Below are positions 24,130 through 59,749 of a stretch of 64,000 nucleotides of DNA, piece by piece. The translations under genes and the position numbers were made by a program. This DNA comes from Psammoneis japonica (Eukaryota), in assembly GCA_008632985.1 (NCBI GenBank), contig QPGO01000021.1, positions 310,001-374,000 on the forward strand, in the 5' to 3' direction. Below the pieces are notes generated by a model, which saw nothing but the letters and a program-made list of their open reading frames with translations, did no database searches and was not told the DNA's origin. Within the stretch, counting starts at the first letter, position 1. The number at the start of each line of letters is the position of its first letter.

Positions 24130-25053
24130 GGCAGACAAAAGTGGTGTCAGGACAATCAATTCTGGTTGGGAAGCGAAGGCAGACTCGAAACTTGGGTGAG
24201 AACAGACTTGACTTGAAACAGACTTGACTTGAAATCTTGAACTGTCTTAAAATCAGAAGTCGCCGGGCTTTGTCATCCCGTTCGTTGTCAAGTGCTAAAC
24301 TTCCCATCCGGTCCGTAGAGTTGTGCCGGCACGTCCGAACCCGCAGCTGGCGGCACTTTGGGTTGCTTGCGAGCGGAGCAGCGGGTTGTAAACCCCTGCA
24401 GGCAAGCTGACCAGAGGTGGACAAGACCCCCGAACCGTTCTTATTTTATGTCGGTTGGATTTCCCGATCAGGCTGGCCAGTTGACGCAGGCGTCAGGCGC
24501 TGTGGACGAACGAACAAACGCGGGAAAGCATTCTCGCCCCAACGCAGGCTGCAATCACGGCTGCTTGCTCTCACAGTCGTCCTCGTGGACCTGGCAGAAC
24601 TGTAGAGCACCAGCAGTCCGGGGTAGATCAGGTGCAATGGACTCGGTGTGCTTGCAGAGTGGCAGCAAAACCGCAGTCCGAAGAGTGGGTACAGGTTCTT
24701 GGCCGTGAAGATGTGCACACACACACATGTCTTCAGCAACGAAGATCCTTGAATGTGCAGGGTTCTTGACCGTCAACCGATGAACAGGTATGTCAAGGGA
24801 TGAGGATCAAGGATAGACTTGGACATGACCGTTGAATGCATGTCTTCAGCGATCAAAGGCAGCACAATCAAACCAGATGTCCAGCGGTAAGGAGACTTGA
24901 CAGTGACGTTAACTTCCTGCCGATGCCCTGGCATTGGATGCGCGTAGACTTGCCGATGTATGTAGAACACATACGGAGGTCCACGTAGAATTGAAATAGC
25001 GTCGTTGGTAAATCAACGACGACGATGGCGGTTGCTCAATGGGTTGACAATGA

Positions 25054-25068
25054 GCAAGACTGTTAATC
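25054..25068 (-). promoter_or_regulatory. Putative primer-binding site complementary to a tRNA-Asn(GUU) anticodon arm
   Basis: The plus strand reads gCAAGA-CTGTTAA-TC and abuts the 5' LTR. No TGG-type PBS is present. Confidence 0.55.
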
Positions 25069-25344
25069 TGACAGAAAATGAAGGCAAATGGCAAGAATTC
25101 AAACAATGACTCCTTACTGCTGTCTAAATAGCAGATGAGTCTCCGCTCAGAGACCGTTGCAGGAGCCGAGGGACGTGTGAGTCGGCACAATCGGGCTGCT
25201 GTCATCATTCTTGTGAGCCTTGTGGCTCGAAAGCAAACTACATCGCGCGCGAACGCGCGGAACTAAAGCACACAAAACTGTGCGCGGTAAACTAAACAGC
25301 GCGCGACACTTCGCGCGCATCCAAATCCTGTTCAAATCCTGTCA
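25069..25344 (-). repeat. 5' LTR
   Basis: Matches 18546-18821, with 13 nt differences at 10 sites. Confidence 0.95.
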
Positions 25345-26375
25345 AAAGGTGGCTGTCTGGCAGGCTCCACTGGGGGGCAGCAAGGGGAGGCTTTTCAGAT
25401 TTGAGAACCTTTGGTTGTCCATGTTGTCCCCATGCAGGAAGGCTGATTGAGTGGTGGTGCCCACACCAGGTCATTCCATGAGGGTGTGACTCTTTGGAAG
25501 TGGTTGGGGTGCTCTCATGTGGGAGCAGAGAGCGCCCAGTCCATCTTGGGGAGAGCTGCTGTCTTGGTGGCTGGCTGTGCTGGATGTTGCGCCACCTTGG
25601 AGTGCAAGTGTCTTGTTGCATTTGCTTTAAATGGGGAGTGACACTTGCCAAGCATCTTGTTGATTTCTTCATGTTGTTTGATGTCAGGCAGGTCTCTGCA
25701 CTGCTGTCCAAACACTCCCTGCTCGGCAGGTCACTGTCTGGTGTGGTGTTTTTGGCGAGAGGGCGGAGATGTTTGGAGCTCAGAAAAATCTGTGCACATT
25801 GTTGTTGATGCATTGACAGAAGTTGGGTGAGGTGGAACTTGACCTCTCATTGCTTTGCTCTTCTTGATTTCCATGGGGTGGGGGGCTTGCTTTCATTTGG
25901 GCATCTTTTGAGGTTGAGATGGAACGGGGAGATTCTTTTCAGGAGGTGGGTGAGGTCGCCCACCACTTGTTTGTGTTGGACCAGCACTGCCGAGCAAGAA
26001 TGACCGTGCATCCCACCTGTGTCACAGCGTCGTCAACAGCATCCAACGTTGTTGAGAGAATGACAGCTCACTTCGGGGTGCAAAATCGAATTCACCGAAG
26101 AAATGACGGACAACAAAGCCTGGTTCCGTCTGTCACTTGTCCGACAACCGCTCTGACGGACGACTCCTCACAGCACAGGCGGCAGATCGCCCACACCGTA
26201 TCGTACGTGCGTGCTGCTGAATGCGATGATCGATGATGATTCTTCTCCTTGCTTCCTGCACGCAACAAACGCCAACAACATCGAAAGTAACGCACAGCAA
26301 ATCATCGTTCTGTGCTCTCTGCCAAGACAGCCTGCTGCTCTGCCTTTCGCAAACATAAACTGAAGAAGAACGAGC

Positions 26376-27224
26376 ATGTTTTCTACAGCCTTTACTCCGA
26401 CTATGGTCTATACCGGTGTTTCTTGTTTGATATCGCAGTTGGTTTTCCTCGTGCTGTTTGCCTACGTGCTACCCAAAGGCCCATGGACCGAGTTGCCGAG
26501 CTTTACAGCCCATACTGTTGTCTGCTTTCCGTTTATGATTTATCTCACATACCAGGGTATGACGGGGTGGTTTGGTGAACTCGAACACGGGGGCGATGCT
26601 GTCAGTCACATTTTGGACGTAAACGATCGAGGCGTACACATTGGGCAAGTTGTACTCGGAATGATGCTGTTTTGGGATATTCCAACCGGTCTCTGCACTC
26701 CGGCGCTCCGCGACCCATTAATGGTCGTCCATCACTTCGGCATGGCCTTCATTGCAGGAGTTGTTGTTGGAGTATTTTCAGACGGACAACCTGTTGGGAG
26801 TTACTATTCATTGTTCTTTCTTGGTGTCATTGAAGTAAGCTCAATATTCCTTACTGTCGTAGATATTTTCCATCCAAAGAATAAAGGCTGGAATGAATTT
26901 TTGAAAGGAGAAACTCGTTTCAAACAGTTTCTACGATCGGCAAACGAAGTTGCAAGGATTGGATTTGCCATTACGTTTCTGGCCACGCGTGCCATTTATT
27001 TTCCTTATGTTCAAGTGACGGGTAGTTTACCAGACTTTTATCACGTTGCATCGTTACCAGCAGAAGAACGACAAAATGTACCCAGTGGCATTCTATACGG
27101 AGTTTGCTTTATTGCGACTCTCTTTGCAGCGCTTCAGATGTATTGGGGTTTCCTGGTGGCGCGCCAAGTTGTCAAGGCACTGGGCATTGGCGCTTCATCA
27201 GACAAGAAAAGCAAGAACTCATAG
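26376..27224 (+). CDS. TLC-domain membrane protein, intronless paralogue of 10465-11483
   Basis: 282-aa ORF. FAYVLPKGPWTELPSFTAH, MMLFWDIP, GSYYSLFFLGVIE are shared with the paralogue. Confidence 0.9.
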   Translation: MFSTAFTPTMVYTGVSCLISQLVFLVLFAYVLPKGPWTELPSFTAHTVVCFPFMIYLTYQGMTGWFGELEHGGDAVSHILDVNDRGVHIGQVVLGMMLFWDIPTGLCTPALRDPLMVVHHFGMAFIAGVVVGVFSDGQPVGSYYSLFFLGVIEVSSIFLTVVDIFHPKNKGWNEFLKGETRFKQFLRSANEVARIGFAITFLATRAIYFPYVQVTGSLPDFYHVASLPAEERQNVPSGILYGVCFIATLFAALQMYWGFLVARQVVKALGIGASSDKKSKNS

Positions 27225-27953
27225 CAAAGCACTCAAACACAATTTGTAAAATGGACATGGCGTTCATAGGTCGAGCAGCGGATGCTAAACTAAGCGGTTC
27301 GTGTAATTGTTGCTGGAGTCAAGCACAACTCCAAGGAAACGAATTCCATAACAAATTGCGCTATCGCTCTGAAGCGAAACATTGTTCCCATGGTGTTGCC
27401 TCTCTAGAAAGATGAAACCTACTGGTAGTCCACGCTAGAGTCCTACTATCAGACCAGAAGGGCTCAAAAGGCTACAGCACTCAAGAAAAAATGAGATATA
27501 AGAGTCCAGAGTCTGTCGTGGGCGCGAACCGCCAACCATACCGTTTCCATTGCTGACGTTGCGTTGGCGGCAAATGGCGGGAAAATACTAGTGCTTGTCC
27601 GTTGAAATCCGTCTTTTCCGTTGGAATCACGCAAAGCGCTTATATTTACTTCAAGAATGGAAATAGTCTTATTGCTGTATTTACCTTCTGTGTGATACAA
27701 AATCTCAAGTTTTCAAATTTTTTATAAAAGGACTTAAAAATCGAATAAATATATATACATTTTTAGCCTAAAGCATCGAATATGTTTATTCAAGCGATGT
27801 TTTCTGAATTATTTTTTTAGCGCGGGAATGCGTGCTGAGGCTTTGGTCTTTGGTGCAAAAATCATCACACACAGTGGCCACAGTAGGCTTTTTGGGTGAA
27901 GAATGTTGATAAGGAAGCCCATGATGCCATTTTGCCCGTTAAGCCAAAGCAAA

Positions 27954-29897
27954 ATGGCGTCACGGATCTTGGTACTTTTGTTGTGTGGAGCTACATGTAG
28001 TCGTTTTGCAGCGTCGTCTTTGATTGAGCGCGAAATGTCACACAATGCTTTTCAGGAGCGAGAGTCGATTGTCATAAAAACTCAACTGGGCAGTGTATAT
28101 GAAATTGATGAATCGAAGTTGGAACCCTTTGTTCGCATGTTTGATCCCAATCGGTATCAAGTGTCAGGCCTGCAAGTTCAAAACAAGAAAACGAAAGAGA
28201 TTTCGCCGGTAACGGTGTTTCGAACAGAAGTTGGAGGTGCTTTGTATCAGGTTCATTTGAGTGACAATGGTAGCATCCGTCTACTTGAAGTACACCAGAA
28301 AGGAGAACCTATAAAGTACATTGCTCGCCAAGAAACGAAACGCTCCTCTGTCTACAGGGAGTACACTTCCAGTGACGTTTCACGATCATTCAGGAATGTG
28401 ATTGAAGACGTTGCGTTCCCACCCCTTCAAGAGGACCTTAGTAGCAACCGAACTTTGCTTGAACAAAATCTGCGTGGTCGTCGGAGTCCGTCTGGCAATG
28501 CTAAAGCACCACCACGACGTCGAAGGCTAGATGACGACTGCGCAGATTTGATGTTACTTCATTTGGCGATTGCCTATGACGAAGAGTTTTGTGAAATGCA
28601 CGGATCCAGGAGAAGGGCGCAAATACGAGTTAGAGATATTTTTGCGGGTGTAGCCCTCGCATACGAAAAATACATGTGTGTCCAGCTCGTCCTGTCGGAC
28701 ATCATCGAGCCTCGTACCTGTGATACATCTGAATCAACATTTCTCGATACTGACATTGTCAATCGCACAAATGCCTGTAAAGATGACAATTCGGGCAAGA
28801 AGTCAACACTGTTGGGCTTTGCAAGGCAAATGACACGTGAGCGAGCTAGTATGGGACTGGAAGATTACGTGACTGTCCACTTTTTCTCTGGATTCCCTTA
28901 CAAAGGTATTGCTGAAGTTGGATGCACTTACAGTGGGACGTTCTGTAAGCCAGCGTGGAGTTATGGGATATCGTACATGAGTTTCAGTCCAAATGACATT
29001 GCTCTGCAGGTAATGATTGCTTCACACGAGCTGGGCCACACGCTGAATATCTCGCATTTGGAAGGAATCAATAGTCGCCAGGATCAGTTCATCATGTCAA
29101 GTTATGTAAATAGCGGCGCTGACGGGTTTAGCCAAGTTTCAGTCGACAAATTGTACAACTTCTTGGAAACCGTGTCTTGTCATGATGTTGTCCCTGCAAA
29201 ACGAGCTATAACGGCTACTGTGATTCGCGGCAACGATGTCTATTTTTTCTTTACCGAGGAGAATATCGCATTGTACACCAAATATGATTGGGGAAACCGA
29301 GAGGTGTACTCGGGCTACCCACGACGGGTGGGATGGGATTGGGGCCGCAGCTGGCCCAGTTCAAACTGGTGGCCGACCGGTGGCTTTTTCAAGGGTGACT
29401 ATGCATTTTTGTTGAAAAGCAACAGAGACCCAAGGGGAGGATCAAGAGGGGTTTCTGAATACATCATATACAACTGGAACGAGGAAGATGTCTCGTCGAA
29501 TGTGCCTTACAAGATGGATTTTACTGGGCTACCGAATGATCTTCTTTTCGATGCCTCTGTTACTATCGAAAGTGATTTATTTCTCTTTTCTGGTGAATAC
29601 TACTACAAATATAGTCTGGAAAAAGACAGGGCCTACGCTGCCTTTCCAAGGAAGGTGGCTACAGATTGGCCAAATTGGCCAGATAATTTCCGTGTCACTG
29701 CGGGATTTGTCGAACCCTCTGGAAGGTACGCATACTTTTTTGGCTTTGAATCGGACGACAGCAGAGAAAGCGACAGGGCCACTCAATGGGGAGGAACACC
29801 TGTTTACATAAAGTATGACGGGAAACGAGGTGTCGTTCTGGGTGGCTACCCTAGATCGATCAAAAGCCATGGGAATTGGGACGGAATTCTGGACTAG
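27954..29897 (+). CDS. Secreted metzincin (M12B/reprolysin-like) metallopeptidase with C-terminal hemopexin-like repeats
   Basis: Signal peptide MASRILVLLLCG, basic RRRR prodomain cleavage site, HELGHTLNISH zinc motif, Met-turn FIMS, GYPR/AFPRK...WP repeats. Confidence 0.85.
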   Translation: MASRILVLLLCGATCSRFAASSLIEREMSHNAFQERESIVIKTQLGSVYEIDESKLEPFVRMFDPNRYQVSGLQVQNKKTKEISPVTVFRTEVGGALYQVHLSDNGSIRLLEVHQKGEPIKYIARQETKRSSVYREYTSSDVSRSFRNVIEDVAFPPLQEDLSSNRTLLEQNLRGRRSPSGNAKAPPRRRRLDDDCADLMLLHLAIAYDEEFCEMHGSRRRAQIRVRDIFAGVALAYEKYMCVQLVLSDIIEPRTCDTSESTFLDTDIVNRTNACKDDNSGKKSTLLGFARQMTRERASMGLEDYVTVHFFSGFPYKGIAEVGCTYSGTFCKPAWSYGISYMSFSPNDIALQVMIASHELGHTLNISHLEGINSRQDQFIMSSYVNSGADGFSQVSVDKLYNFLETVSCHDVVPAKRAITATVIRGNDVYFFFTEENIALYTKYDWGNREVYSGYPRRVGWDWGRSWPSSNWWPTGGFFKGDYAFLLKSNRDPRGGSRGVSEYIIYNWNEEDVSSNVPYKMDFTGLPNDLLFDASVTIESDLFLFSGEYYYKYSLEKDRAYAAFPRKVATDWPNWPDNFRVTAGFVEPSGRYAYFFGFESDDSRESDRATQWGGTPVYIKYDGKRGVVLGGYPRSIKSHGNWDGILD

Positions 29898-31684
29898 CTA
29901 TCTCTAGAGAACAAACTAGACGCATATCTCAAGATTTAGAACTTTGCGATGGGACGGAAGTATCATGGGTCACCGGAACATCTTTCTTGGAACGCAAAAA
30001 TTCTAAATGGCTGTTGACCCTTCCAGACTCATTTCAGCACACCACGCTACATAGAGAGGCAATCAAATCCAGGATCAACGACTGCGTGTACCGGTTAGAT
30101 TCGTTTCTTGACCAGCAGCCGCACTGTACTGTACAGTATTACCTGTATTTACTCCAGAGGACGTACCAAATTTTTCTTGGCGCCAGAACCACTTCAAAAA
30201 TTGTCCGTTGAATGGTGGCATTCCCTTTTTAGTGAATGAATATTATTATGTAATTTAAAATAATTCTAAAAGTTCAATGTTACATAAATATACATTTTGT
30301 CATACGAGAGTTACTACGTCCAGAAGGTACCGTCGTATCAGACACATGAGATCGATCGAGCGCGTTGCGCATCGCATGCCGCATCCCTCCCGCCCACGTC
30401 CGTCGCCCGTCGCCATCATGAGCCATGAGAGCCGAGAGCGCTGAATGCTGAAAGGCTAACCAGTGAATCGCATCATAGAAGCCGCACCAAACAAGCATCA
30501 TGACAGATGACAGGCGAGTTGCACGGAAGAAGCAATGCCTCGTGGACAGCAGCGAAGTGTGTTTGCATCCAGGTGCATTGACGCCGCTTTTCATCGCACC
30601 TTTCTTGCTTGGGCTCGAATTGTCCAACTTCTGCACCTAAGAACATTTGCATTGCTGTGTTTGCCAGCCCAGGAATGGTGCTGCTGGCCCGACTCTCCCT
30701 TCCAGACTCACATTCAACAGTGGATTCCTTCCTCAGCCACAGCTCCTTTGCTGAAGAGCTGATCACGCAGAGTGTGAGTGCCTGTCGCTGCACATGCTCG
30801 GCATGTTGTGTTCAACGAAGCCAATGCCATTTGGTTTGCAGCATGGCAAGTGCAGCTTGCATCATGATGATGAACGGGAAGCATGGCAGGAGGCTTTTTG
30901 TTGAGCCCCATTCTGCATTCGGTGCTGCTGGTTGAGGTTGACGCCCTCTGACTGCGTTTTTTGATGGGCTGCAAATCAACAAAGCTCGCTGTAGAAGGGA
31001 TCTAACCATCTGCATCATCAGCTGATGTCATCTTTTTTGAAGCAGTTTAAGAGTGATGCACAACATTCATTTGCCGGTGTGACTTGTTGGGGCAAGAAGT
31101 TGCAGGTCCCTTTCTTCCTTTCCAGCCGCACTTGCAAAAAAGTCTTTCACAGCTGTCCAAGTGACCGGGATGCAGAAGATTCAATGGGGGATCAGCACAA
31201 TGAATGTGATCATCATAGAGTTTGAGCATGGAAGATGTCATCATTGTCAGAGCTTTGCCCTCTGGGGCCCCACTGGTTTCTTTTTTCAGAACAAGACCGT
31301 TCAGGAGTGCGGGAGACGCAAGTGCTGATGGACGAGTCATTGCATTGGAAATCTTTGTGGGTGAGGCCTTTGGTCCCTGCAGCCCAACTCTGCAAAAGCA
31401 GTGCTGTGGAGATGCGTGCAAAACATGGCTGGACACAAAAATTTCACAATGCCCGTGAACAAAGTCCGCGTCGTGAAAACCTGAGAACGGCACTTCTTCC
31501 GCGATCCACAGCGGCACCAGAACAGATCCACACCCACACAATTGCTTCAACACATCCCTCCAGAAGCTTGAGTGATCCATTTGGTCTCACTCTGCTTTTG
31601 CAGAAGATTCGAGATTGTAAGAGTGAAATCAACAAGAACCAACAAGATCGGATGTCACTGCTGCGGCTCAAATCCACAACACCA

Positions 31685-34600
31685 ATGAATCACTCATGCG
31701 GGTCAAAGGGAGGCAAAGGTCATCATGGAGGGAGTTTTCCAGGGCAGGGTGGCAGTCCTGGCATCTGTCACCAGTGGCAAGATAAAGGCTTCTGTTGCTT
31801 TGGAAAGAGCTGCAAGTTCCAACATGTTGGTCCTTCTGGTGGCGGTGGTGGCAGAGGTCCCCAACGTTCATCATGACGTGTGGATGAGATCAATTGGTCA
31901 AAACAAGACATGACTCAATTTGTTGAGCATCTTTTGATTGTGCCCATCCACAAGCTTGATCAAGAGCTCATTGCATCTTCATCACTGTGGTGCCACTGCT
32001 GGCAGGAACAAAAGCTTTTGGATGCCAAAACTTGGCGTGCGATGATTGAAGTCTTGGCCAAGACACCAGGGTCATCTTCCATTGATCTGCCCCAGATCAA
32101 TTCATGTGAAGCAGCAATTTTGGCATTCTTGAGTGAGAATTCAGATGGCAATTCAACCATCCTGACCTCTGCAAAGACAACCTTAAAAATGCAGCATCTC
32201 ACCTTCTGCTGTTCAAGTGGGACTGCTTGCACAAACAAGTGGTTGAAGGCCTCTCAAAAATCATTGAGTCAGCAGAAGGAAAGCTGCAAAAAAGAGACAA
32301 AGAGCATTGGAATGTGGGCTTGCACATTGTGGAAGTGCTTGAAGATTTAGAGAAACCGTGGCATGTCAAAGTCAAGGAGCTTCCAAACTCTGACTTGAAA
32401 CAGCCCACCCGGGCACTCTCACTCCACAATTGGCCGTCTGCTGACATAAAATGGCTGTCAAATCCTGCATTCTTTGCTCCATTGTGCTGTCCAAAGATGC
32501 AGGTGGGTGGTGAGGGGGTGCATGATTCTCCGGAGCACTGCAATGACATTTTCTGATGGACACGCGGCTCTGGCTCCCCCCCATTGTTGCTCTCATGGAC
32601 AAAATGGAGGATGCAACAATGCTCTCTGTCCAATTTCAAATGCATTGAGTGCTCCAGCCATCAAGCATTGCAAGTGCCACAGCCAAGGATGTTCAAACCC
32701 CGTTGAATTCACATGCCGCATTCCATCTCACAATGCTCTTTGTGGCCACTGTGCAAGACAGTCAGTCTCTTGACACCTGCAGGGCCCTGGACAGAGTGCA
32801 TCCACTCATGTGTGCAACTGCAAGGTCAAGCATGTTGACTCCAGTGGCATTGGTTGCTCAAGAGATTTCAAGTCAAGAAACCCACCTCTGACCATCCATT
32901 GGAAAACTGGAAAAAGGCTGTTGCCACCGAGTCTTGTTGGGATGGTCCTGGTGTGAGCCAGCGGAAACACTCTGAATGAGAACAACAACATGTTGTGGGG
33001 TGAAGTCATGTGTCATGGGCACAATCACAATGAGGGCCGGTGTTGCAAGAATGGAGAGGTTGCCGTTGACATGGGCTCGATTTTGCCGATTGAGCCCAAC
33101 ATTTTTGAAGACCATTCGAACATTGTTGTCATTGAGTCACAAGATCCTGTCAATGTTTTGAGATGTTGTTTTGCTTGCAGTTGTCTCACATTTTGTTTCT
33201 TGCAGATTGATTGTGTGACTTTCATTCCTGAGTGGATTCCCATGTTGAAGGTGCTGGAGTCTCAGCGCAAAGTGCACTCACCTTTCAACAATGGTTGGCA
33301 CCTGAACCTTTGCCAAGAACACCCCGTGGTTGCAAGCTCATGCATTGATGATTTGTCACCTGAAGCGCTGTGTGTTTGGGGCCAATGAAACATCAATCGT
33401 GAATGAAATGATTGAAGAAAGCTTGTTGGAACCCATCCGTGAGATCCGTTTAGATGCAGAGCTTCAAAAGACACTCACCTCCAAGCTTCTTGAGCTGGTG
33501 GCAGAGACAACTCTGGACAAGAAGCAGTTTGTCAGTTTTGTGGACTCGCTGCAGAATCCAGCACACTCAACACAGGGCCCGCGGGCAATTCCAAATGGTT
33601 TGAATGAACCCATGTTTGATTCTGTTGCTCACATTGACACCTGATTTTTGCGTCACAGGCCTGGCACAGGAAAGAGCCATCTTGGCGTTGTGTTGGTCCG
33701 GGCGCTGCTCACAACACGCGAACTTTGGATGACGAAGGGTCGTTTGGTTGGTTTGCTTCCAATGTTGGTTCTGTCCTGCAAGAACCAGGCAATTGACAAT
33801 TTTCTGGTTGATCTTGTAAAGGCAGAGCCTGTCAAGCTAGCCTGCAGCAAGCTCATCCGAATCTTGGCAGCCAATCAAAGGACCCACGGTTGGCGCAGCA
33901 CTCTGAAAGAAACACCTGCCAATCTGATGCTGAAGTCAAAAAAAAGCTTTCAATGGACCAGAGTTTGATTTGACTGCAAGATTCCATCAAAGCAAATCCA
34001 CATGGTGATGTCACATCATTTCTGGCCTGTCAGCTGCCAATGTTCTCTAATGATGATGAGAAGGCAAGGGGCAACACCAGAAACAAGGCCACCCAGTTCC
34101 TCATGGAGTGCACAGTTCTTCGGCACCTTCTTCTTGCTCTTTATTCTGCTGGGCAAGTCGAGCCAAATGACAGCCAAGTGCACTGTCCAGCAGACATTGC
34201 TTCAACTCTGTCTTTCATGGAAAGAGACAAAGATTGCCGGGCTTCTGGGAAGGTGTTGCATCTGGTTTCATCAGCATCCAGTGGATCAAAGTTCGTCACA
34301 TCCCTCTTCAACAAAGAACACCACCAGATTGGAGATCGCTGGGGTGACATTCCAATGATGTGACTCAACGGAAAGGAACCTCTCCCTCACTTTGTTTTCA
34401 CACAGGCAATGGCAACAGTGATTCGTGTGGTGGGCTTGCTGTCTTGCATGAAGTTCTGCTTTGTGATGAACGCAGATGCTTTTTTGAAAACAGCTCGATT
34501 GGCTGCTGTGTTGATCCCTGCAAAGAAAACGGCAACCACTGCTCTGAGCACTGTTGCCAGATTGCTTGTTGCCGTGTGTCTAAAATTGGCAGATTGCACA

Positions 34601-37600
34601 ATTGCTGTCAAATGCATGCATGTAAAAAGTGCATTGAACTCAACATCCCAGTGAAACCTGGGCTTGACAAACCTCCTGGGAATGTTTGCGAGTCACACCC
34701 TCTCTGCACCTGTCCATCCTGTCTGGGATGTTGCACCCCAAATGCCATTTGTTGCACCAATCACCATCAAATGAAATGCAGGCCATCATGAAGAAAGGAA
34801 GGCCATGCTGTGGAGAGCCTTTGTCTGTTTGCAAGCCTTTTTGTCATGATCATTTGCACATGGCTTGCATCATGCAGTTTGACACCAAAAGCTTTTAGTC
34901 TGTTGACAGTGATTCTTCTCTTGACGATGATGATGACGCAAGAGCTGCATCATTGAATGTTGAAAGACCCAAGTGTGTGGCTACAACAACAAAGGGCCAT
35001 CCTTGCAAAGGGCTTCCAATGTCTGGCTCCAAACACTGTCATGATCATTCCCCACAACTTGCCACAGGTGTCAAAGGAGTGCCGGAAGAGGCAGTGGCAG
35101 CATCCTGCAAAGACAGTGAACTTCCACCACCTGTGGCATTGCACAAAACAGGACTTGACATCAATGAACATGGAGAACTTTGTCATTCTAACAACCCTGA
35201 TCATGCAGAGATTTCTTCTTTTGTGCCTTCTGAAAGCAGCCATTCTGCACTTGAAAAGAGGCCCAACCAAAGGGCCTCATGGGCGAGGTCAATGATTTCG
35301 ATGTGGAGTGCAAAGAAGCTGATGACCTTCAGCCCTTGCGTGATGTGTTTGAGGTGCAAAGTGCATCCAAAGATGACAATGAAGTCTCAGAAGAAGTGTC
35401 AAGTGGCGCCACAAGCTTTCATTCCACGTTGCAAGACCTTGTCTCTTCTGATCTGAATGAATGGACATGGGACATGTTGCTGGAAGAGCGATGGCACGCT
35501 TGTCACAATCCAATGGATGATCTCCATGCCCACATGAATTGTGCTGCCATCCGAGTGAAAGGTTCCTTGGTGATTGCTTGCAATGATCTGGCTCAAGTGA
35601 CAATCCATGCCAAATCTCATGTGTGCGAGAACAAATCAGTTGCAGGTGGGATGATGGTTGGTGCCATCTCCCATCTTGATTCGACACAGGCAACAAGACC
35701 ATTTGCTGTTGTTGTCGAAGAGGCCAGTGAGGTGCTTGAACCACTTCTTTTTTCATGTCTGTTTGAGTTCACTCTCAAGCTTGAGATGATTGGTGACCAC
35801 TGACAACCACACCCATCTGTCATGAGTCATTTTGACTGCAAGCTCTGCAACAGGATTGACGTCTCAATGTTTCAACATTCAATTGAAGCTCCTGTTGGAC
35901 ATGGCATTCCTTCTGCCATTTTGTCTGTCCAGTGGCAAATGTGAAGAAACATTTGCAATCTCATGCAAGACTTTTGTGCCAATGTTGTCGAGATTGAAGA
36001 CCAAGAAGCATGTGGCCTGCAGGTCATTGGCGCCAAAAGTTCCTCCACGAAAGGTTTGGTTGTCAGTCAGTCATCAACTCAGGGAAGGGTGTGCACATCA
36101 ATGAAATTTCATTGAGCATTGAATTGTCATGTGGCTTGCTCAACTTTTGCATCTGCTTGTGAGCAGGAGGGTTCCCGGCATTGCCCCTCATGTTTTTGTT
36201 TGGACGCATGGCAGCATGCAGAAACAGGCCCACACCAGGGTTTTGCGCATCAACAATTTGGAAGCCATGATGGTTTGTTCTCTGGCAGCCTGTCCAGTTG
36301 CTTGCTGCAGAGATCTGAGGTCTGGCATTGCCACTCTGACTCCCCACAAAGGACAAGAGAAAAGCTGTTCAAAGATTCATCATTTGCTCCAGCACGTCTT
36401 CTCTCAAGAGACCCCCAAACCATGGACATCTGTCATGTGAGTGTGGTTGACCACTTCCAAGGAGACAAGGAGGACATCATCATTTGCAGCCTCATTGTTG
36501 ACGAGAACTCCAAGACTGGTTTCTTCAAGCTGGTCAATCGAACAGTGGTTCTCCTCAGTCACTCGCCCTTGGTCTGCACATTGTTGGCGACAGTGGCTTT
36601 CTTGGAAGCGTGAGCATTCCAAAGCATTGGGAGGCCACATTGAAGCTTCTTGAAGGAAGTGGGAGTGATGATTCAGATCAAAAAGATGTCAGATCAAGCA
36701 ACATCTGCACCGGTCCGAGAACAGGGGACAAGCTTCCTCTCTGCCACCCCGTCCACCGGCTCGTCACCAAGACTGCAGATTCTCCCGCATTGCTTGAAGG
36801 TGATTTCTGCAATCACCTCTTCCATGTGGCCACCCATGCTTGCTTGGATGCCACTGGCCAAAGTCAACTCACAAACAAAGCTGCGCTGCAAATCTTGACT
36901 CTCCCTGTCTTCGTCATCACAGCAAAATTAACTGCCATGAGGCATTCGAGCATTCTGTCGGAGCCCTGCTGAGTGCAGACTACACACGCATTCTTGCTTT
37001 TTACAGATGCCCTGGACAGGTTGATGTGGGCCTCCAGTGTGGCCACATTGCTCACTTGGAATGCTGGAAAGAAAAGGAAATCAACAAAGGGGCTTGATCC
37101 CCACCAGTTTGCAACCTGGCTTCTCTGACCCCATTTGTCTTTGTTTCTTGTGGACACATTCCTCAGGAGTCAGATGCAAGGAACTCAAAGCACACACAGA
37201 AAATCCACCATTGTTCAGTGCAAAAATGAAGGGGTTCACGAAGCATCTTGTGGGCACAAACATCAAATGCAGCACTGGGAAATCAATGAGCACACAAATG
37301 GTGCCAAGATCTTTGACTGCCATGAAAAGGTTTTGATGATTCTTCCTCATTGTGGTCACAGACACAATGTCATTTGTGGGGTTGCACAGTCCCTCTCTCA
37401 ATGGGAAGGTGGAAGCTGCAGCCAAATGGGGAAAATCTACAAGGGTGAGACCTGTGGCATCTGAGACCACATTTGCAACAAGAGAGCTAAGATCGTCCAA
37501 AAGTGCGGTCACCACATCGAACTTCCATGCAACAAAGCTTTCGCGTGGATGCCCCATCTAAAGCCGTGTCAGACTCCGGTGCAAAAGCTGCGCCCAGCTT

Positions 37601-40600
37601 GTGGGCATCGTTGCATGCTGCCCTGCTGCAATGCATCAACAGTGACAGCCAGCCACAAGCTCACCCACTGCTGTGACTGAGTGCAAAGAAGGAAATGTGC
37701 CCAAACCACCTTCCGCAGATTTCCCACTCCCCAAATGCAACAAAACGGCAGCACTTCTCTGCAAGTGTGGCCACAAAACAAAAGTCAGCTGCTCAGATGC
37801 TCACTTGCCTCATGCTGGCTGCAAAGAAAGTGTCACAGCAGTCTCTCCCCTTTGCGGTCATCAGGTGGAAGTCAGTTGTGGTGGAGTTGATGAGTTTTGA
37901 AAAGAAATTTGGCCAAGGCTAACTTTTTCTGCCATTGTTTTGGAGTGCACCATTCACCAAAGCACAACACCTCTGCGTGATCTGAAAGGGTTGGAACCCA
38001 GGATGAAGTTGACTTTTCAAAGCTGTGAGAGACAAACAAAAACCACCATGCACTGTGGCCACAAAAAGACCATTCCTTGCCATGAATTTTTTGATTGGCT
38101 CCTCCGTGGTTGGGATTTGTCGGACTCAAAGCAAAGCTGTGACGAAATTGTGATGCCACGTCTCAGATGCCATGGCCATGAAACTGAGATGACGTGTTCA
38201 GAGGAGCAGAAAGTCAAAACAGGAACATCAATCCCGCAATGTCAAAAGGAAGTTCCACAAAAGTGCTGGAATTTTTTGAAGTGTCAACAGACTCTGCAAG
38301 CAGGGTGCAGCTTTGATGGCGAGGCTGTGTGTAGCGCCAATGCCTCATGGACTTGTCCATGCGGACATCAATTCAGCACTGAGCAATGCATGGAAGGCAC
38401 TCTGCTGGACTGCCCCAGATGCTCCTCCCCGCAGCTCTGGATGCAGCACTTTGGGCTCCTAAAGATGTCGACTGCTCTGAGCCATCAAAATTCATCAAAT
38501 TGCTGCCAGAAGGTTCTGTCAAAAAACTGAAGGACAATCCAAAGCCGCTGTCTCAGTGCAAGATGTTTGACTCCTGTGTTGTGGATGAGTGGCAGAGACC
38601 TCTGTTCTTGCTTCAGCAAGCAGTGTGCTTCCATCATCTTCAGAAAAAAACCTGCAAGCCAAAAGCTTTGACCCAAACAGATTTGCAAAAGCTGCTTCAT
38701 GCAAGTGTGTCTAGAAACTCAGGGTTCTTGTGCTGTGTGACACAGCCTTGCTCATCAGATTTTGCTGTCGCCTCTCACCTGAGTGCCTGTTGCAGAGGAG
38801 AACCTGAAACGACTTGCCAATGCAGTGAAAACTGGAGACATCACGTTGTCAGCGGGCTTGGTTTCTGCAGCAAGAACCCATTCCACTCAATCTGGACTCC
38901 CTTCCCAAAAAAAGAGAGGCGCAATGCTTGAATCTCTGCTCAGTGACAATTGCAGTTCAGTGCTTTGTCGAGAAAGAAACTTCACTGACTCAATCATTTG
39001 GGATCCTTTCCCCGCACTTGACCTCTTCCGGGTGAGACTCTCCCACAATCAACTTCTTCTGGCTGCCAACAACATGTGCGACATGTTCGAATCTCTGCAA
39101 CTGCAGCCATGATCAACTGCATTCCAGGCTCCACCTGAAGGCATTGTGATGGACCTTGCAACCTGCCACCCCGACACGGACAACAGCAATGGTCACAAAG
39201 ATGACAACAAAACTGAAGAAAAGGAAAAAATGACAGACCTCATGCTCACTGATGCTGTGCTGGAGGGTTTGAGGGTTGATCTAGACTGGCCGGGTGGAAT
39301 CCACTCACATGGGACATTGAGTTCAAATGTGAGCAAGACCTGGAGGAAAAGATGCAATTCCCAAACAAAGATGCAGCTCTGTTCAAGGCAATGTCTTTGT
39401 TGAAGAAGCTGATCACAAACACCAAAGGGGCAGCTTTGTCATTGTTGCACCTGCTGATGTCTTTGGAGATGTTGAGCCACGATCCCAACCAGGCAATGAG
39501 CCACCTTGCTGCTTTTGTGCAAGCTTCCAAAACTTGTGGATCAGGCCACAAAATCCATCTGTGGAGCCTGATTGTTGCTGCTTGCCTGGAACCCTCAAAC
39601 AAGAAGAAACTGCTGTTGACCTTTTCATCTGCATTTCCCATGCAAAAACACCTCTCACAAGAAAGTGAGCTTGACAGATTGCATGGAGGACACTCCAACA
39701 CACTGGACACTTCAAAGCCTGCAAGCTGGCAGGAAGAATCCTTGAAGAGTCAATGGCGGGACTTGCAAGAGCAACATCCCAGAGAAGCCAAATCAGAAGC
39801 AATGGACGAACTTCTTGCCCATGTGGGATTGAGAAAAATAAAAGAAGAGGCACTCTGCCTTTGGAGTTCAGCACTGCAACTTAAGAAAATGGATCCAGAG
39901 GCCCGGAAAGAGAACCGACAGTCAGCAAACTGCATCTTTGCCAGAAACCCAGGAACAGGTGAGCTTGGACACCACATCTGGACTTGGCGTTGAAGGCAAA
40001 ACATCTGTCACATGCCTTTTTGCAAAAATGCTTTGTGACTCTGGGGTTTGCAAGAAGAGCACAATCGAAAAGCCAACAGCGCAAGAAACAAAAGACGGGG
40101 GAATGGATGAATTCTGCAAGTTGGCAGCCAAGGCCCAAGATGGTGTTGTTTTCATTGATGAAGTGTGTGATCTTGATCCAGTTGGGGATTTCAAAGGAAG
40201 GCCAATTGCAAACGAGCTCCTCACCTTGTGCAAAAACAGACATGATGAAATCTCATCCATTCTTGCCGGGTGCAAAGATGATTTCGAGAAGAAGTTCTTC
40301 GCCTGCAACAATGGCTTGAGAAGTAGATTCTGTTTTTGCATCTTTGAAGATTTTGATGAAGATGAGTTGCACACCATCTGGGCTGATCTCCGTGTCCAAA
40401 AATGATGGGATGAAGTTGAAGGGGTGTCAATGGTTGCGGCAAAATGCTGGTCAAGAAAGCCAGTCAAAAGGCTTTGGAAACGCACGTGATGTGAGAAAGT
40501 GCCTGAAGAGGCAATGCAGTCAGCAATGGGTGACTGGGCAATGATTTCAACATGGCCAACATGAAAATTGAGATCCAGCACGTTGTTGGTCAGGATCCTT

Positions 40601-42290
40601 GACTTTCCAATGAGAAACTCCAGAGAGTTCACAGAGAGATTGACAAAAAAATTGGATGGGGCCGTGTCAAGAAATTGTGGGAGAACTTGTCAACTTGTGC
40701 GGCATCAACTGTGAATGAGAGCTGCAAGGGAAACTGCCTCTTGACATTTTTCTCAATCGAGTGTTTGTCGGTGACCTGGGTGAGTGAATCTTGACATCGT
40801 CCCCACACGCACTCTTTGTGAACTCACATTGACTGAGTGCCCTCCTTGATGAAGGCACCGGCAAAACCACCTGCGGCAAGCTGTGCTGATGGCTGTTAAA
40901 GGAGCTTGGATTTACAAGCAACGGCGCAGTTGTGTCAAAGGCAGTGAGTGATTTTGCAGGAAGCGCAGTCGGAGAGTCTCAAACAAAAACCACAAATGTC
41001 CTTGAAAGTGCCGGTGGCAAAGTGTTGGTCATTGACAAAGCCCATGTCCTTGATGATGGTCTGCATGGAAAACAAGTTCTCAACACTTTGATTGAGAAAG
41101 TTCAAGGAGGTCCGTCAGATGACATTGCTGCTGCTCTCCTCTTGGGCTGTGAGGAGCAGATGCTGGCATCAACTTGAAACCAAAATTCTGGACTTGCACA
41201 GCATTTTCTGAAAATTCGCGCTTTCTGCTTTGACAACTGCAACAACAATGAGCTGCTCCAAATTGTCAGCTTGAATTTGAAGACAAACAATGTCAAGGCC
41301 AGCATTGAGTTTAATGAAAAGGCCCTGGAGACTTTCTTCATCAGCAGAGATGCCAAGCAAATTTTGGAAATGCCGGTGCTGCTGAGCTCATTGCAAAGGG
41401 AGTGACATTAAAAGCAACAAAATGCCTTGGTGCTTCATTGGGCACTCCAACGCTGGAGGACATGGACATTGATGATCTTGGTGTTGCTTGATCCAAGAAG
41501 GATGACAATCCTCTCAAGCAGCTGGACAGCCTTTTCTGGATGGAGAAGGTGAAGGAACAGCTGGACAACATGAAGAAGACTTGGGCAGTTTTGAAGAGTG
41601 GTGGCAACGACCAGCCGTCATTGGGGCACTTTGTGTTTGCAGGGTCACCAGGTGCTGCGTTCAATTGTCAACACAAAAAATGCACATGGTTTCTTGATGG
41701 CCACAGCTGGTCATTGTGTTTTTCACCTTTGGTTTGAATCAACAAGGCACGGGTGAGACAACAGTCTCACAAACCATTGCACAAGTGCTGTTTGGATTGG
41801 GGCTTCTCAAGATTGTCGAATCATTGGGACATGAAATGATGGGAGATTTTGTGAGCCAGACCAAGACAAAGGTGAACGAACAAGCTCTGAGAGCAAGGCC
41901 AAGGGTGGCATTCTTTTCATCCATGAAGCACATGACCTGGGAACTGGCCCTCATGGAAAGGAGGCATGTGACACCAAGGAGCTTCAACAAGCCAAGCAGC
42001 TGGAGAGAGAATGACTCAAAGAATTGAAACGGCAAGAGGAAGCGCGCCAACGGCTCTTGGTTGAACAGGCAGCGAAAGAGGCCGAAACGTGAAAGCACTG
42101 CAAAGAAGAGCTGGAATGCATTCAGAGAGAGTTGGAATGCAAAGAGCAAAAACATGCCATCTGCCATGCAGAAGAAGCAGAGTGCAAGAGGAGGCACCTG
42201 GAAGATGAGCGACGAAAGCGAGCGGAAGAAGAGTGACTTGAACGTGAGCAAAAGACTCGCAGAAGAATGGAAATGATGCAATGACTCCAG
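31685..42290 (+). pseudogene. Giant ZNFX1/UPF1-like SF1 helicase with CCCH and NF-X1-type zinc fingers plus three CbbX/SpoVK-like AAA domains, heavily decayed
   Basis: CHQWQDKGFCCFGKSCKFQH. QGP|PGTGKS, VVEEASEVLE, IGDH, VVDHFQGDKEDIII, NRTVVLLS. Many CGH repeats. NPGTG|KT + FIDE, G|TGKTT + VIDKA, SPG|TGETT. Many stops and frameshifts, TA and CG depleted. Confidence 0.8.
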
Positions 42291-42854
42291 ACGATTTGAC
42301 CTTGTCCCATGGGATTCTCTTGGTGTGGACATGGTCAAAGATGGAGATGCGGCGGCAGGTCCCACTTTCATCAGTGACAGTGAACTCAAACAACGACTCG
42401 CTTGCGATTTGTGAGACAGAGGTGCAAACTCGATCGGCACTCATGTTTCATTCGGTCGTTGACATTTGACGTTAACCACACCAGTTGTGCATGGCAGTAC
42501 ATGGTGGTGAAATCGTTTGCTGTCTTTAATTTCAAATTACAACCTGTGCCGCAACATCGCATCTGAAGTCGAAGTTGGCGGGGGGCACGGGCGGGCAGAC
42601 GGCAAGTTGGATGTCTGTCTATCTGTCGCAAGCAGATATATAGATTTATTCGTTTCTGATAATCTGTTTTACAGCATTGCGGCCGTTGAGAAAAGTCGAT
42701 TGAATCAGTCGACTCAATCCTCACCCAACCATTCGCGCGAGCAAATCACGCAAGAAAAACGAAAGCAGCAAACACACACAACCGGCACCACCGGACGTCG
42801 TCGCAATCGTGTCATTTGCAGGGCTTTCAACGATAAAAGCCAACACAACACATC

Positions 42855-45629: not shown

Positions 45630-45758
45630 TGAGAGCTCTCTCTACTGCCGGTGCTAGCTAGAGAGTAGAGGCCTCTCTACTCTAGAGAGCCACTAGAGAG
45701 TAGCCATTGCCATCTCTCTACTCTCTACTAGCAGTAGAGCTAGCTACTTCTAGTAGCT

Positions 45759-45792
<34 letters not shown>

Positions 45793-45943
45793 CAGCAGAA
45801 CAGAGCAGCCAGTCTCTCTCTCCAGTGCCAGAGCAGAGAGAGCCATGCTCCAGCCAGCTGGCGGCAGCTCCACTCCAGCCAGAGCATGCATCGCATGTGC
45901 TGAGAACAGCCTCTCCACTCTCTAGCCACTGGGAGAGCAGCTC

Positions 45944-46079: not shown

Positions 46080-48400
46080 ACTTTGCGCCACCTAAACAAC
46101 GGAGAAAATGCTGCTAAGAAATGCTGTTTTTATTCCGGTTGAACCATTTTTCTTCTGTTCTTCGGAAACTGCATCAGCAGCAGGCATGACTCGGACGACG
46201 CTCGTCCGTGTTGTGCAATCTCTGGACCAACAGTCCAACCATTGTCTCGGATCTTGTGGGAGATTGTGACTCTCAAACCCCCCACTTCATGCTGCCAATG
46301 TTCATTGACCAAGTTCCAAACAAAGTGTTTGCAGTTTCGATGCAAACAGTTGCAGTCTCGTCCATGGTGGTTGCTCCTCTCCACGAACGCCCAATGGTTG
46401 ATGGCACCAATGCAGGCATTGCAACAGCGGTGAACACCGCACCACAGCTCGTGACCCCATGAATCACTGCAATGATGATTGGGTGAACCATCTGGCATGT
46501 GACATCCAGCTGCACTGCTTGGGCCATGCTCCAACATGTGTGCAGTGCCACTGCTCAGTGAGAGAACAATGAAAGAGTGAGTGTTTGAATGGAAATTGCA
46601 GCCGGGCCACAAACAATCCACCATGCTCCTGTTGTGCACACGATGACCAACACCACTTTCTTGTGCCAATTCATTTTGTCTTTGCTTGCTGTTGTTGATG
46701 CAGAATGCTGTTTGACTGAGTCTCTGGCTCTGGATTTGTTGTGGGTTGTTGGTGCAAAAAAATTGGTCGCGAGTTGCGATTTCAATTCGTGCTTCGCTTT
46801 TTTGACACACGCATTCCGTCAGTCGTGATGCATGAACTTTGGTTGTGTCCACACACAAGGTTGTCACATGCACACAAATTGGACATTCATCTGCACAGTG
46901 GCAGGCAAACTTGACTTCACCCATCACACTGGCAAACCAACCATGGGCAATTTGTCTTCCACAGAAATGCCAAAGCGGCATCCCGTCCATGCAATGAATG
47001 CTGCTGCAAAACTCATCTAATGGCGACCCCGTCTGGCACCAGAAACACTCCAGATTGAAGTGGCAGATGAATCTCCTTCCAGCACTGATTGAAGAAATCA
47101 GGCCGAGCAAACAGACAGGTGATTTCACTTGCTGGCTTTTGTTCATGATGCACTTTCATTCTCAGTTCCATGCCCCCCGTCAATGGCAGCACAAATGTCG
47201 CACATTCCAGTGCTGCAGCAAAAGTGAGTTGGCTCATTTGCTCCACTTGGCGCCATTTGGAGGAAAGCCACACACTGGAGCAAATGATGAAAAACACATG
47301 CTTTGGTTGCATGAGCCAAAACAAAACATTGCTGAAAAGGTGCCTCATGAGGTGTGCAAGAACTGTCATGATGGTTTGATGCTGGTGGATGGAAAGCCAC
47401 ATTTTTCAGCAGCTGGCAAAATTAGTTTGGAAATCATCCTGGACAATTTCTTCTGCTGCTGGACCCAGACTCCAAGCCAAGCAATGAGAGGATGCTGCTG
47501 TGGGCTGGGTGACTCATGGGGGTCATCTCATGTCTCATGGAGGCAGGCTGGTGAGGAACAGATGAGAGGCCAAGGATGGAGGGCAGATGGGTGCAATTAG
47601 ATCCCAAACATGACCAGTCCACACATCATTTCCTCAGCAGTCAGCATCAGAGGAGGGGTTGCAACTGTGGTCCACTGCAGCAACAGGGTCGGGCTGTCAT
47701 GTCTCACACTGCAAAATTTCTCACCACATGCTCAACCTGGCTGCTTGGACACACAGTGCTGGCTGGGTGTCCTCTTTTTGGTCCAGGCTGCATTGCTGCA
47801 GACCTTCAGACTTGCATGTCTGGGTTCCCACCCAGCCATCACTTCTGCAGTGCAATGGTGCAACTGCTGTTGCACATTGCACGCCTCAGACATCTCGTGC
47901 TGTGGGCCGACTCTGCTGTTGCACATCATCAAGGTGCTGACCTGCCAAGGTGGTGTTCTGGAATCCCAAGGGATTTTCTCCAAGGTGTGTCACACACATG
48001 GGTGGGAAGTTGCATTTTGCCACTGATTGCTGATGTTGGCTGAAAAGTTGGGTGGGAGCTTTGGGTGTGTGACCCAACGAGAGTTTCAGTGCGCAGGCAT
48101 TGTCGCGGGGATGTCAATCCTGCTGGAGCAGGTGCAACTTTGGCTCCAGAAAGCTTGATGACACCAGTGAAAAAACAGCTGCACTTCAAAGCTGGAGATG
48201 AGGTGAGTGGGTGCATGATCCACAGAGGGGCACAAGGGAAGCTGCAGCGGGAGAAAGAGCACTGGGGCACATGACCTGTTTTGCAGTGTTGGTGAATGTC
48301 TGTGCACATGTGACCCCCTGTGTTGGCAGGGCTGAAAAGGGAAAACCGATGCTCACAACTCTCTCTTGCCTCTATGCCTCCTCCACTGTTGCCCATTGCC
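46080..48400. other. TpA/CpG-depleted island, unclassified decayed element
   Basis: Near-absence of TA and many Tyr-free pseudo-ORFs. No diagnostic motif recognised. Confidence 0.5.
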
Positions 48401-48429
48401 AGTGTGAGGCTGATGGTTGTAGGTTACAG

Positions 48430-50276: not shown

Positions 50277-51374
50277 CTAATGGCGATGCATCTCGGCACG
50301 AATTTCATCCTGAGGGAGATCCTTGTCGTAGATGCGAACCGTGTCCATGTATCCTCTAAGGAAGTGCCTATCTGATGCCCGGGTCTCTCCTAATTCGGAG
50401 CCTACGTTAAAGGGCGCCTCATTTTTACAATAGTCTCCGGGGCTTGTGATGTCCCCCTCTACGTCCAACTCTCCGTTGATATAAACCTTCATTGTATTTT
50501 GGTCATTGGTTACAGCAACGTGGGTCCACGTCTCAGTTGGAATTGGGTTGATACCTTTCAACTGGAAATTGTCGTTCTTGGTGCAGCCACCAAATTTGCC
50601 CCCCGCCCTGAGTGTATGATATTGCTTGTGAATGCCGAACCAAAGAGCTCCGGTTTTCTGGATAAGAGCATAATTATTGTCATCGGCTCTGGAATTATCA
50701 GAGTACCGAACCCATGCCATGAAGGTGTACTTCTTCATGTTCAAATCTTTCGACTCTGGGATTATCATGTGATCATCCCTTCCATCAAGGGAGGCGCCAT
50801 ATCTCGAGTAGCCTAAACTGGTGTAATAAATCCTACCTCTCCCTGCTGTCGAGCCATCCCATCCGTTCATTCCTGAGTCTTTGTAGAGGGTGCTTGAACT
50901 GTCGAAGCGGTATTCGAGCAGTGGTCCATCGCACGGCTTGAGGCCCGGGACACTGATGGACTTAGAGAACTCCACGCGGTTCTTACCAACATAGAGGGGA
51001 ATGTCTTCCGGCGACTTGACGGTCAAACATCCACTCCCGTCGCTCTTGATAAGGAAATTGAATCCATCCTTCTTCTTCCTCGGAACATTGATGATGAAGT
51101 CCTTGTTCAACTCAATCCCATCGGCCTTCTTGCCGATCGCAATGTCGGATGTATCCGCCACTAGGCTGGCATTGACTGCCACAGGCTGTCTCCCACCAGC
51201 CGCTTCCAAGTACCACTGATCGGAAAAACACTTCCGCCACAGGAAAACAGCCCTGTCCTTCCGCTTGTTGTATGATGGTTCACCACACGTCGGCACTTCG
51301 TTCGCGACAGCGCGCTCAGCTCCAATCCAAAGCAGAGTGGAAAGAACTAGGAGGCAACTGCGAATCGTTTTCAT
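50277..51374 (-). CDS. Secreted LamG-like/concanavalin-A-like jelly-roll protein
   Basis: Signal peptide. YTFMAWV, WTHVAVT...MKVYING, GYMDTVRIYDKDL. Confidence 0.85.
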   Translation of the reverse strand: MKTIRSCLLVLSTLLWIGAERAVANEVPTCGEPSYNKRKDRAVFLWRKCFSDQWYLEAAGGRQPVAVNASLVADTSDIAIGKKADGIELNKDFIINVPRKKKDGFNFLIKSDGSGCLTVKSPEDIPLYVGKNRVEFSKSISVPGLKPCDGPLLEYRFDSSSTLYKDSGMNGWDGSTAGRGRIYYTSLGYSRYGASLDGRDDHMIIPESKDLNMKKYTFMAWVRYSDNSRADDNNYALIQKTGALWFGIHKQYHTLRAGGKFGGCTKNDNFQLKGINPIPTETWTHVAVTNDQNTMKVYINGELDVEGDITSPGDYCKNEAPFNVGSELGETRASDRHFLRGYMDTVRIYDKDLPQDEIRAEMHRH

Positions 51375-59514: not shown

Positions 59515-59749
59515 TGTCCTTGTTTGCTTTTCTTTTCTCTTCCATTTCGCTGTGATGTTGATGCGGTTCAATGTGTGAGCGTGCCGAAACAGCCCGTCGG
59601 AGGCGGCAGTGCTGAAACGTGTGGAATTCTAAAGGATCTTTCGAATCTCGAGCTCGAACTCCTGCCGTCAAAAAAAAAAAAGAACAAAAACGGCATCAAA
59701 AGAAATGCATGCAGAAAAAGCTCCTGTGTTCACAAGCCATGTGCAGGGG

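Follow-up and report, generated by a model that had tools for sequence, protein, structure and literature searches.

Why has almost every TA dinucleotide disappeared from a 12-kb island in a diatom genome, and why do the survivors favour particular flanking bases? The stretch analyzed here (the window) comprises 64,000 nucleotides of Psammoneis japonica (assembly GCA_008632985.1, contig QPGO01000021.1, positions 310,001 to 374,000 of the forward strand), and coordinates are those of the window unless a contig is named. The window contains nine islands depleted of TA and of most CG, in which TG and CA are abundant. The island that raises the question is:

30597–42470, no strand assigned: TA- and CG-depleted island, the focal island of this study (hidden Markov model [HMM] segment 30597–42026; TA-free gap 41409–42473)

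Observed/expected ratios in the focal island are 0.05 for TA, 0.32 for CG, 1.75 for TG and 1.61 for CA. An initial annotation of the sequence had tallied roughly three dozen TA sites between 30600 and 42400, mostly YTAR (Y, pyrimidine; R, purine), with few RTAR or YTAY and no RTAY. Direct counting bears this out: 38 sites remain, comprising 22 YTAR (CTAA 9, TTAA 7, CTAG 3, TTAG 3), 10 RTAR, 6 YTAY and 0 RTAY. Non-island DNA of the same genome, scaled to the island's length, gives expectations of 70.8, 104.3, 108.1 and 115.0, respectively, YTAR being the rarest of the four classes outside islands. Island class counts depart strongly from this background (chi-square 47.2, 3 degrees of freedom, P = 3e-10), and the probability of drawing 0 RTAY among 38 sites is 2e-6. 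The annotation had also taken YTAR to be invulnerable on both strands. This is incorrect, as only 22 of ~71 expected YTAR sites are left in the island, and only 447 of 1,476 in the islands of a larger sample.

This larger sample spans 594 kb, including 246 kb of island; 394 kb of it is contiguous on C23, the contig of the window, and the remaining 200 kb was picked for repeats related to islands, so it is not random. Its islands retain 802 TA sites versus ~8,300 expected. Survival is highest for YTAR (447/1,476), lower for the mixed contexts (340/4,425) and lowest for RTAY (15/2,396). The initial annotation had proposed counting all NTAN tetramers in islands and background, with uniform survival as the outcome that would speak against its claim; uniformity is rejected (deviance 947 on 9 degrees of freedom, and 798 with CG loss as the sole criterion for islands). 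The hierarchy of TA contexts is real, though YTAR too is ~70% lost. A survival model with four rates, set by the base that follows TA (position +1), yields 0.28 for TAA, 0.96 for TAG, 1.9 for TAC and 2.44 for TAT. Fitted genome-wide, the +1 model predicts 22.4 YTAR, 7.1 RTAR, 7.4 YTAY and 1.6 RTAY survivors in the focal island, which makes up 5% of its fitting set, compared to the 22, 10, 6 and 0 seen. At the level of single tetramers in the sample's islands, TTAA is the most resistant (56% kept), and 0 of 683 expected TATA remain. An A at +2 seems protective as well (survival of 0.38 for TAAA versus 0.13–0.16), an effect that is not separable from that of T at –3 (13:9 in the paralog pairs described below).

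Because TA is palindromic, a target of 5'-TAY and a target of 5'-RTA leave the same NTAN survivors, and counts of survivors alone cannot tell them apart. Only the product at mixed sites discriminates, as YTAY becomes YTGY under the former and YCAY under the latter. Product tetramers pooled over islands number 17,052:12,145, compared to 10,641:8,916 expected. For a polarized test, we used paralogs paired so that a TA-rich copy is compared with a TA-poor one (154 of 2,534 alignments, giving 313 target sites and 182 ancestral sites, with 86 sites deriving from a single source locus). Mixed-context sites, placed in the YTAY orientation, became TG in 108 cases and CA in 42, with 18 still TA and 14 other. 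With one vote per ancestral site the ratio is 59:23 (3 ties, P = 9e-5), while CG sites, taken as a control, show no asymmetry (38:44; votes 22:21). Log-likelihoods are –289.5 for uniform rates, –283.3 for a model based on the base before TA (position –2), –260.2 for the +1 model and –257.4 for both, and relative rates by +1 base are 1 for A, 3.28 for C, 1.18 for G and 3.15 for T. A model of 5'-RTA, with the purine at –2, fits survival equally well but is beaten on outcomes by the +1 model, by 23 log-likelihood units.

A second polarized test comes from a retrotransposon family with a member in the window:

18546–25344, minus strand: young Copia-type long terminal repeat (LTR) retrotransposon (LTRs 18546–18821 and 25069–25344; open frame 18769–24246; RVT_2 domain)

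The minus-strand frame of this element is open over 1,825 codons, with a tyrosine content of 1.4% versus 3.6–4.8% in its relatives, and 10 of 28 conserved tyrosines are now Cys (TGY) or His. Our Copia set consists of this element together with 26 further copies, those that scored best (of 528 candidates, 27 were scored). Among 151 columns, 72 are decided, and the TAY strand is ahead in 62 of them and the TAR strand in 10. The TAY:TAR rate ratio is 2.98 (1.71–5.63) in the reading frame and 1.88 (1.38–2.69) outside, and the strand term does not differ from 1. Event counts on the Copia tree (533:233) were not used as a test, the tree being poorly resolved. A singleton analysis of these copies at first opposed TAY, with RT[A]R changed at 9/25 sites versus 4/21 for YT[A]Y and 12 of 15 mixed-context changes on the TAR strand. 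That analysis was biased, because a column was kept only if TA is present in the window copy and agreement among copies reaches 80%, which removed the fast sites; using all 151–154 columns with TA in at least four copies reversed the result in favour of TAY. Alleles of the window and its haplotig also favour TAY (23:8), although near-identity of the haplotig over most of the focal island means that only one TA change was obtained there.

Within an obligatory TA target, then, TAY is favoured over TAR by ~2- to 3.3-fold. Since A before C or T mutates that much faster than A before A or G, RTAY is lost first and YTAR last. The initial annotation had named A in 5'-TAY, on either strand, as the target; the direction was right, whereas exclusive targeting of TAY gives way to a graded preference.

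Could the hierarchy have arisen otherwise than by differential loss, from ancestral composition, selection, errors of assembly, or TA sites newly formed where CAR underwent C>T? This last change would yield the same order of classes, and the composition test does substitute background for the true ancestor. However, YTAR is the rarest class in that background, and among Copia relatives from metagenome contigs, 10 of 11 are TA-normal (observed/expected 0.65–0.92) with RTAY far above YTAR. Survival at ancestral sites in the paralog pairs displays the hierarchy directly (YTAR 25/83 kept, mixed 18/182, RTAY 0/48). Formation of new sites is not supported as its source, as just 3 of 14 new TA sites in Copia are YTAR. 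As for assembly error, contigs from a public sequencing run, possibly of the source sample itself, match two other islands of the window without difference. The paralog-pair and Copia tests have already largely refuted these explanations, which we regard as most improbable.

The change is highly specific for the base preceding A. Between TA-rich and TA-poor copies, A>G occurred at 198/308 TA positions, compared to 12/569 for AA, 20/560 for CA and 5/483 for GA. Transversions at TA number 10/308, and 95% of TA changes are transitions. One caveat here is that pairs were chosen because they had lost TA; this exaggerates the TA figure, though not the purity of the change. The reverse change, C>T at CA, is rare (3/518). 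TACG is among the most-mutated contexts (0.65 in Copia, 17/23 in pairs), with TACT at 0.61, and the TAT rate is 0.7–1.3 times that of TAC across data sets. By the base at –2, factors are 1 for A, 0.55 for C, 0.63 for G and 0.61 for T in pairs, and 0.39, 0.39, 0.23 and 0.34 in Copia.

Error-prone DNA synthesis could in principle produce a related pattern. In this scenario, a Y-family polymerase resembling Pol eta would fill patches during heterochromatin repair and place G opposite T at TA, much as happens in antibody hypermutation during its second phase. The WA hotspots of Pol eta rank TA above AA, and a 3' T raises both, as described in the accessible part of a preprint (bioRxiv 10.1101/2021.08.03.453264). 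Since Pol eta thus shares the preference for TA with a 3' T, this context is not diagnostic of TadA. Five Y-family polymerase loci are present in the genome, and the changes are clumped by copy with slight strand concordance. On the other hand, AA, a hotspot for Pol eta, is nearly untouched here, and transitions predominate at TA. TA loss is also uncoupled from CpG deamination, the expected trigger of such repair, and TA-poor stretches with normal CG exist. We consider this explanation distinctly unlikely.

The timing of the changes bears on whether RNA or DNA was the substrate. The two LTRs of single Copia copies differ in 182 of 296 TA-column comparisons, 40 of which are TG versus CA. Mutations arise, in other words, after insertion. 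The paired LTRs exclude RNA-first editing for most changes, and this bears on a proposal involving an ADAR-fold deaminase, whose substrate would be the DNA strand of RNA:DNA hybrids, or RNA that is reverse transcribed after editing. ADARs prefer a 3' G, which is opposite to the bias seen here. Both strands are mutated equally, which also speaks against such editing, and the gene in the focal island appears to keep its introns. The genome does encode two A_deamin (ADAR/ADAT1-fold) genes (L136, C79:344558–345390; L135, C40:112674–113392), and single-domain homologs of the first occur in many diatoms. Neither the open frames of the two genes nor the Pfam matches listed for the homologs include an RNA-binding domain. 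A 5' U is favoured by ADARs, according to the accessible text of a preprint on another alga (bioRxiv 10.64898/2026.01.13.699255). Overall, this route appears very unlikely.

Within the Copia set, the number of TA changes per copy ranges from 1 to 53 (chi-square 353, 26 degrees of freedom; 43.5 for CG). The process is episodic, acting in bursts per copy, with some changes possibly shared by descent. The TA burden of a copy is uncorrelated with its CG loss (rho 0.30, P = 0.13) or with other private changes (rho 0.00), and flank state does not predict it (rho 0.33, P = 0.10, 26 copies). TA has changed at 24% of 2,483 copy-sites, versus 4.5% of 13,353 for CG.

These numbers are relevant to a further alternative, in which TpA in silent chromatin carries a covalent mark or a lesion (such as oxidized T or methylated A) that miscodes or is deaminated, giving T>C/A>G. 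The pyrimidine at +1 would then be a purine 5' of T on the other strand (RTA>RCA) and would reflect the writer enzyme. Strict dinucleotide specificity on both strands, as in CpG methylation, would be natural for a mark, as would little or no strand coordination and the lack of a clear hairpin effect. TA loss is moreover co-located with CpG-decayed islands, and the genome contains 27 cytosine-methyltransferase-family matches. (Those on contigs C297, C301 and C10 are clustered, several with stops, which suggests mobile or decaying copies.) Set against this are the higher rate at TA than of CpG decay, its bursts, and the independence of TA and CG burdens. We know of no TpA-directed writer, and none was searched for here. 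A mark of this kind seems unlikely to be the cause.

Our preferred explanation is a DNA adenine deaminase, the most likely single cause, to which we assign a probability of about one half. Whatever its nature, the mutator attacks silenced or expendable chromosomal DNA in bursts, converting A of TpA to G on either strand in DNA already in place. Chemically, a zinc deaminase of the TadA/ADAT2 or ADAR/ADAT1 fold may convert adenine in DNA to hypoxanthine. The enzyme would presumably be recruited to silent chromatin, and replication would then turn the change into a permanent G. With one strand changed, the site is TG/CA and no longer a target. Loss of CpG in islands represents a separate, slower process, probably decay of methylated C; diatom transposons are methylated by DNMT5, according to the accessible part of the relevant study (PMC9998398).

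Several observations weigh against a TAY-preferring adenine deaminase. The data do not discriminate between damage to A and damage to the T paired with it. In the focal island alone, the product-tetramer test is not significant (752:588 versus a background ratio of 1.19, P = 0.21), and the ATAG/CTAT class is even in the paralog pairs (12:12). The four-rate +1 model leaves a deviance of 21.8 on 6 degrees of freedom, and the ranks of TAA versus TAG and of TAC versus TAT differ among data sets. An enzyme that travels along single-stranded DNA would be expected to leave strand-coordinated changes. Such coordination is absent from pairs (158/325 versus 166 expected) and alleles (22/40 versus 20.3), although repeated rounds could blur the signal; Copia concordance is weak (0.545 versus 0.51, P about 0.04). 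There is no clear effect of hairpins: none is seen with stem length (rho –0.02, P = 0.79, 308 strand-sites), and folding energy of 17-mers around the same sites gives a weak trend (rho –0.11, P = 0.053). Finally, while the assembly contains a TadA-like gene (C38) and an ADAT2-like gene (C26), these and the A_deamin candidates can all be housekeeping genes, and their presence establishes no causal link; nor are the Y-family polymerase loci or the cytosine-methyltransferase matches linked to the process.

Known adenine deaminases offer partial precedents, with further points on the negative side. Natural TadA acts on RNA, at TACG in YTACGAA within a stem-loop, and editing is lost when the +1 base is changed from C to T, as the accessible part of one study reports (PMC12255301). 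Like natural TadA and the editors derived from it, the activity seen here changes A to G after T, with TACG among the top contexts. The initial annotation had read the context as TadA-like. Yet TAT is mutated about as often as TAC, TAR is mutated as well, and no pyrimidine effect is seen at –2. Hairpins have no clear effect, and the substrate is DNA, as LTR pairs differ post-insertion and both strands are affected. The enzyme is therefore not natural TadA with its known specificity, and assignment to the TadA family is not supported. Evolved TadA editors act best with a 5' T, and a 3' C raises and a 3' A lowers editing, the same rank order as here; their 5' T preference, in the accessible data, is 25–52%, far weaker than the 18- to 60-fold preference in P. 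japonica (PMC8989541). Amphioxus BjADAT2 deaminates DNA, in the contexts GAA for A and TCG for C and preferably in hairpins. It is a natural eukaryotic DNA-adenine deaminase and, from the accessible text, the only natural ADAT2 tested on DNA (PMC10354150). An ADAT2-like gene is present here, whereas GA is the least-mutated A context (5/483). Processive single-strand deaminases, as in APOBEC or ADAR hyperediting, leave strand-coordinated clusters, unlike the changes described here. A possible single-strand burst was noted at 45705–45938, where five successive TA>CA changes lie on one haplotype at an island edge; coordination is not significant over all allelic sites.

What, then, is the DNA that was attacked? 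Three-frame translation, tblastn and Pfam comparisons indicate a decayed gene, with these features:

31226–42368, plus strand: large, frameshifted gene with a CCCH finger, superfamily-1 helicase pieces, a Cys-rich region and several AAA ATPase domains
31763–31825, plus strand: weak CCCH zinc-finger remnant (PF00642, E = 0.028, below the curated cut-off)
33660–33884, plus strand: helicase AAA_11 remnant with Walker A motif (PF13086, E = 0.0013, below the curated cut-off)
36416–36559, plus strand: helicase AAA_12 remnant (PF13087, E = 1e-4, below the curated cut-off)
39931–41933, plus strand: 13 positions at which homologs have conserved Tyr (at least three homologs, at least 70% Tyr)

The gene resembles, we assume, ZNFX1-type helicases. 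Seven homologs (P0001–P0007) align to the multi-AAA region at 37952–42368 by tblastn; a search using the middle part of the island found none, and an Rfam search gave no match, only short tandem repeats being present. Named homologs of the window's proteins come from diatoms. Putative introns lie near 39960, 40780 and 41650, as suggested by alignment gaps and GT motifs. Among the best candidates scored in the 91-Mb assembly, the gene is found only in the window, in haplotig C594 and as a 32–38% paralog. None of the 13 conserved tyrosines is kept: nine are TGY (Cys), three CAY (His) and one TTC. After a pyrimidine these codons became TGY or CAY in a ratio of 6:1, which again favours TAY, and after a purine 3:2. 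Conserved codons starting with A now start with G in 2/2 cases after T and in 1/63 otherwise. Over 33129–40835 the window and C594 are 99.7% identical, differing mainly by small gaps, and adjoining DNA differs by 6–19%; this tract may reflect recent conversion, loss of heterozygosity or an assembly effect. TA>TG/CA changes never make a stop from a sense codon, which explains dead genes that are tyrosine-poor and stop-free, and means that damaged elements can look intact.

The remaining islands of the window, defined by HMM segmentation and without assigned strand, are:

11974–13326: TA/CG-depleted island
15743–16341 and 16732–18602: TA-depleted islands
25318–26026: TA/CG-depleted island
46209–48419: island holding a repeat with a TA-normal copy on contig C97 (from comparison)
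51896–54000: island whose alleles are only about 81% identical (from allele alignment)
58047–62402: two islands, 58047–59548 (TA-poor, CG largely kept) and 60222–62402

Loss of TA with retention of CG is seen at 56900–57800 and 58047–59750 and at loci L023, L044, L045, L047 and L053. The first of these stretches holds an open frame (56904–57779) with a glycine-transporter-family domain, which has 5 TA in the window versus 28 in the matching haplotig stretch. TA-normal genes lie between islands at 6431–7849, 26364–27224, 27900–29897 and 50277–51389; their products carry HIRAN, TLC, M12 metallopeptidase and laminin-G/ConA-like lectin domains.

One record hints that the process is not confined to a single genome. 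The Copia-like sequence L144 (JAAUXU010128967.1), the eleventh of the metagenome relatives mentioned above and a single short record of 1,372 bases, has observed/expected ratios of 0.01 for TA and 0.11 for CG and has lost 11/11 conserved tyrosines (9 TGY, 1 CAC, 1 GAC). It has no close match in the assembly, its long matches being 65–74% identical among the 40 of 66 candidates that were scored.

The TpA signature is thus well supported, and it is of a kind barely known so far. TpA hypermutation has to date been measured in one alga, in one preprint: in the chlorarachniophyte Bigelowiella natans, a subset of lines acquire de novo A>G mutations only at TpA, at a rate about 1,000-fold above background, for which the authors propose a deaminase (Mettrop et al., bioRxiv 10.64898/2026.01.13.699255). 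Judging from the accessible part of that preprint, the resemblance is close. In both organisms A:T>G:C occurs only at TpA, giving TG and CA, in local domains of chromosomal DNA, and is non-constitutive, being limited to a subset of lines in B. natans and to a subset of copies here. There are also differences. B. natans belongs to another supergroup and the affected DNA there is integrated viral DNA, whereas the targets in P. japonica are LTR retrotransposons along with other repeats and a host-type gene present in single copy, mutated alongside CpG decay and to near saturation. Confinement to domains is evident here from sharp islands and from the transposons affected, yet what occupies the focal island is a gene in single copy that has homologs in diatoms. 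The accessible text of the preprint mentions neither flanks nor diatoms, so the +1 pyrimidine bias is not described in that text; its mutation table may bear on flanks. Our literature search, outside of which most subscription papers fell, turned up no report of TpA loss in diatoms or of a +1 flank bias. TpA-only hypermutation was already known from B. natans, and what is new here is the diatom case and the +1 bias.

Tentatively, diatoms and chlorarachniophytes may share a burst-activated defence enzyme that deaminates chromosomal adenine, preferring T-[A]-Y over T-[A]-R, and acts against transposon copies and silent genes. Such an enzyme might, more speculatively than not, be nature's equivalent of the adenine base editors made in the laboratory, with a far stricter requirement for 5' T and no need for long single-stranded runs. 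The data provide a fingerprint for screening enzymes: TA is obligatory, C or T at +1 is favoured 2- to 3-fold over A or G, AA is spared, strand coordination is slight, and bursts strike individual copies independently of CpG. Comparing this fingerprint with the roughly 230 de novo TpA mutations of B. natans may tell whether the same mechanism operates in both lineages. Were a DNA adenine deaminase responsible, it would be a natural example of a type of genome editor hitherto obtained mainly by directed evolution.

Repeat-induced point mutation (RIP) of ascomycetes is a useful point of reference. RIP changes C to T in duplicated DNA and so creates TpA. Both RIP and the process described here bring about domain-wide, context-specific transitions in transposons, on both strands. 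Unlike RIP, however, the latter destroys TpA, with hardly any C>T at CA, and has struck a gene without a close paralog in the assembly. If DNA adenine deamination is indeed the cause, it would constitute a eukaryotic genome defence opposite in direction to RIP.

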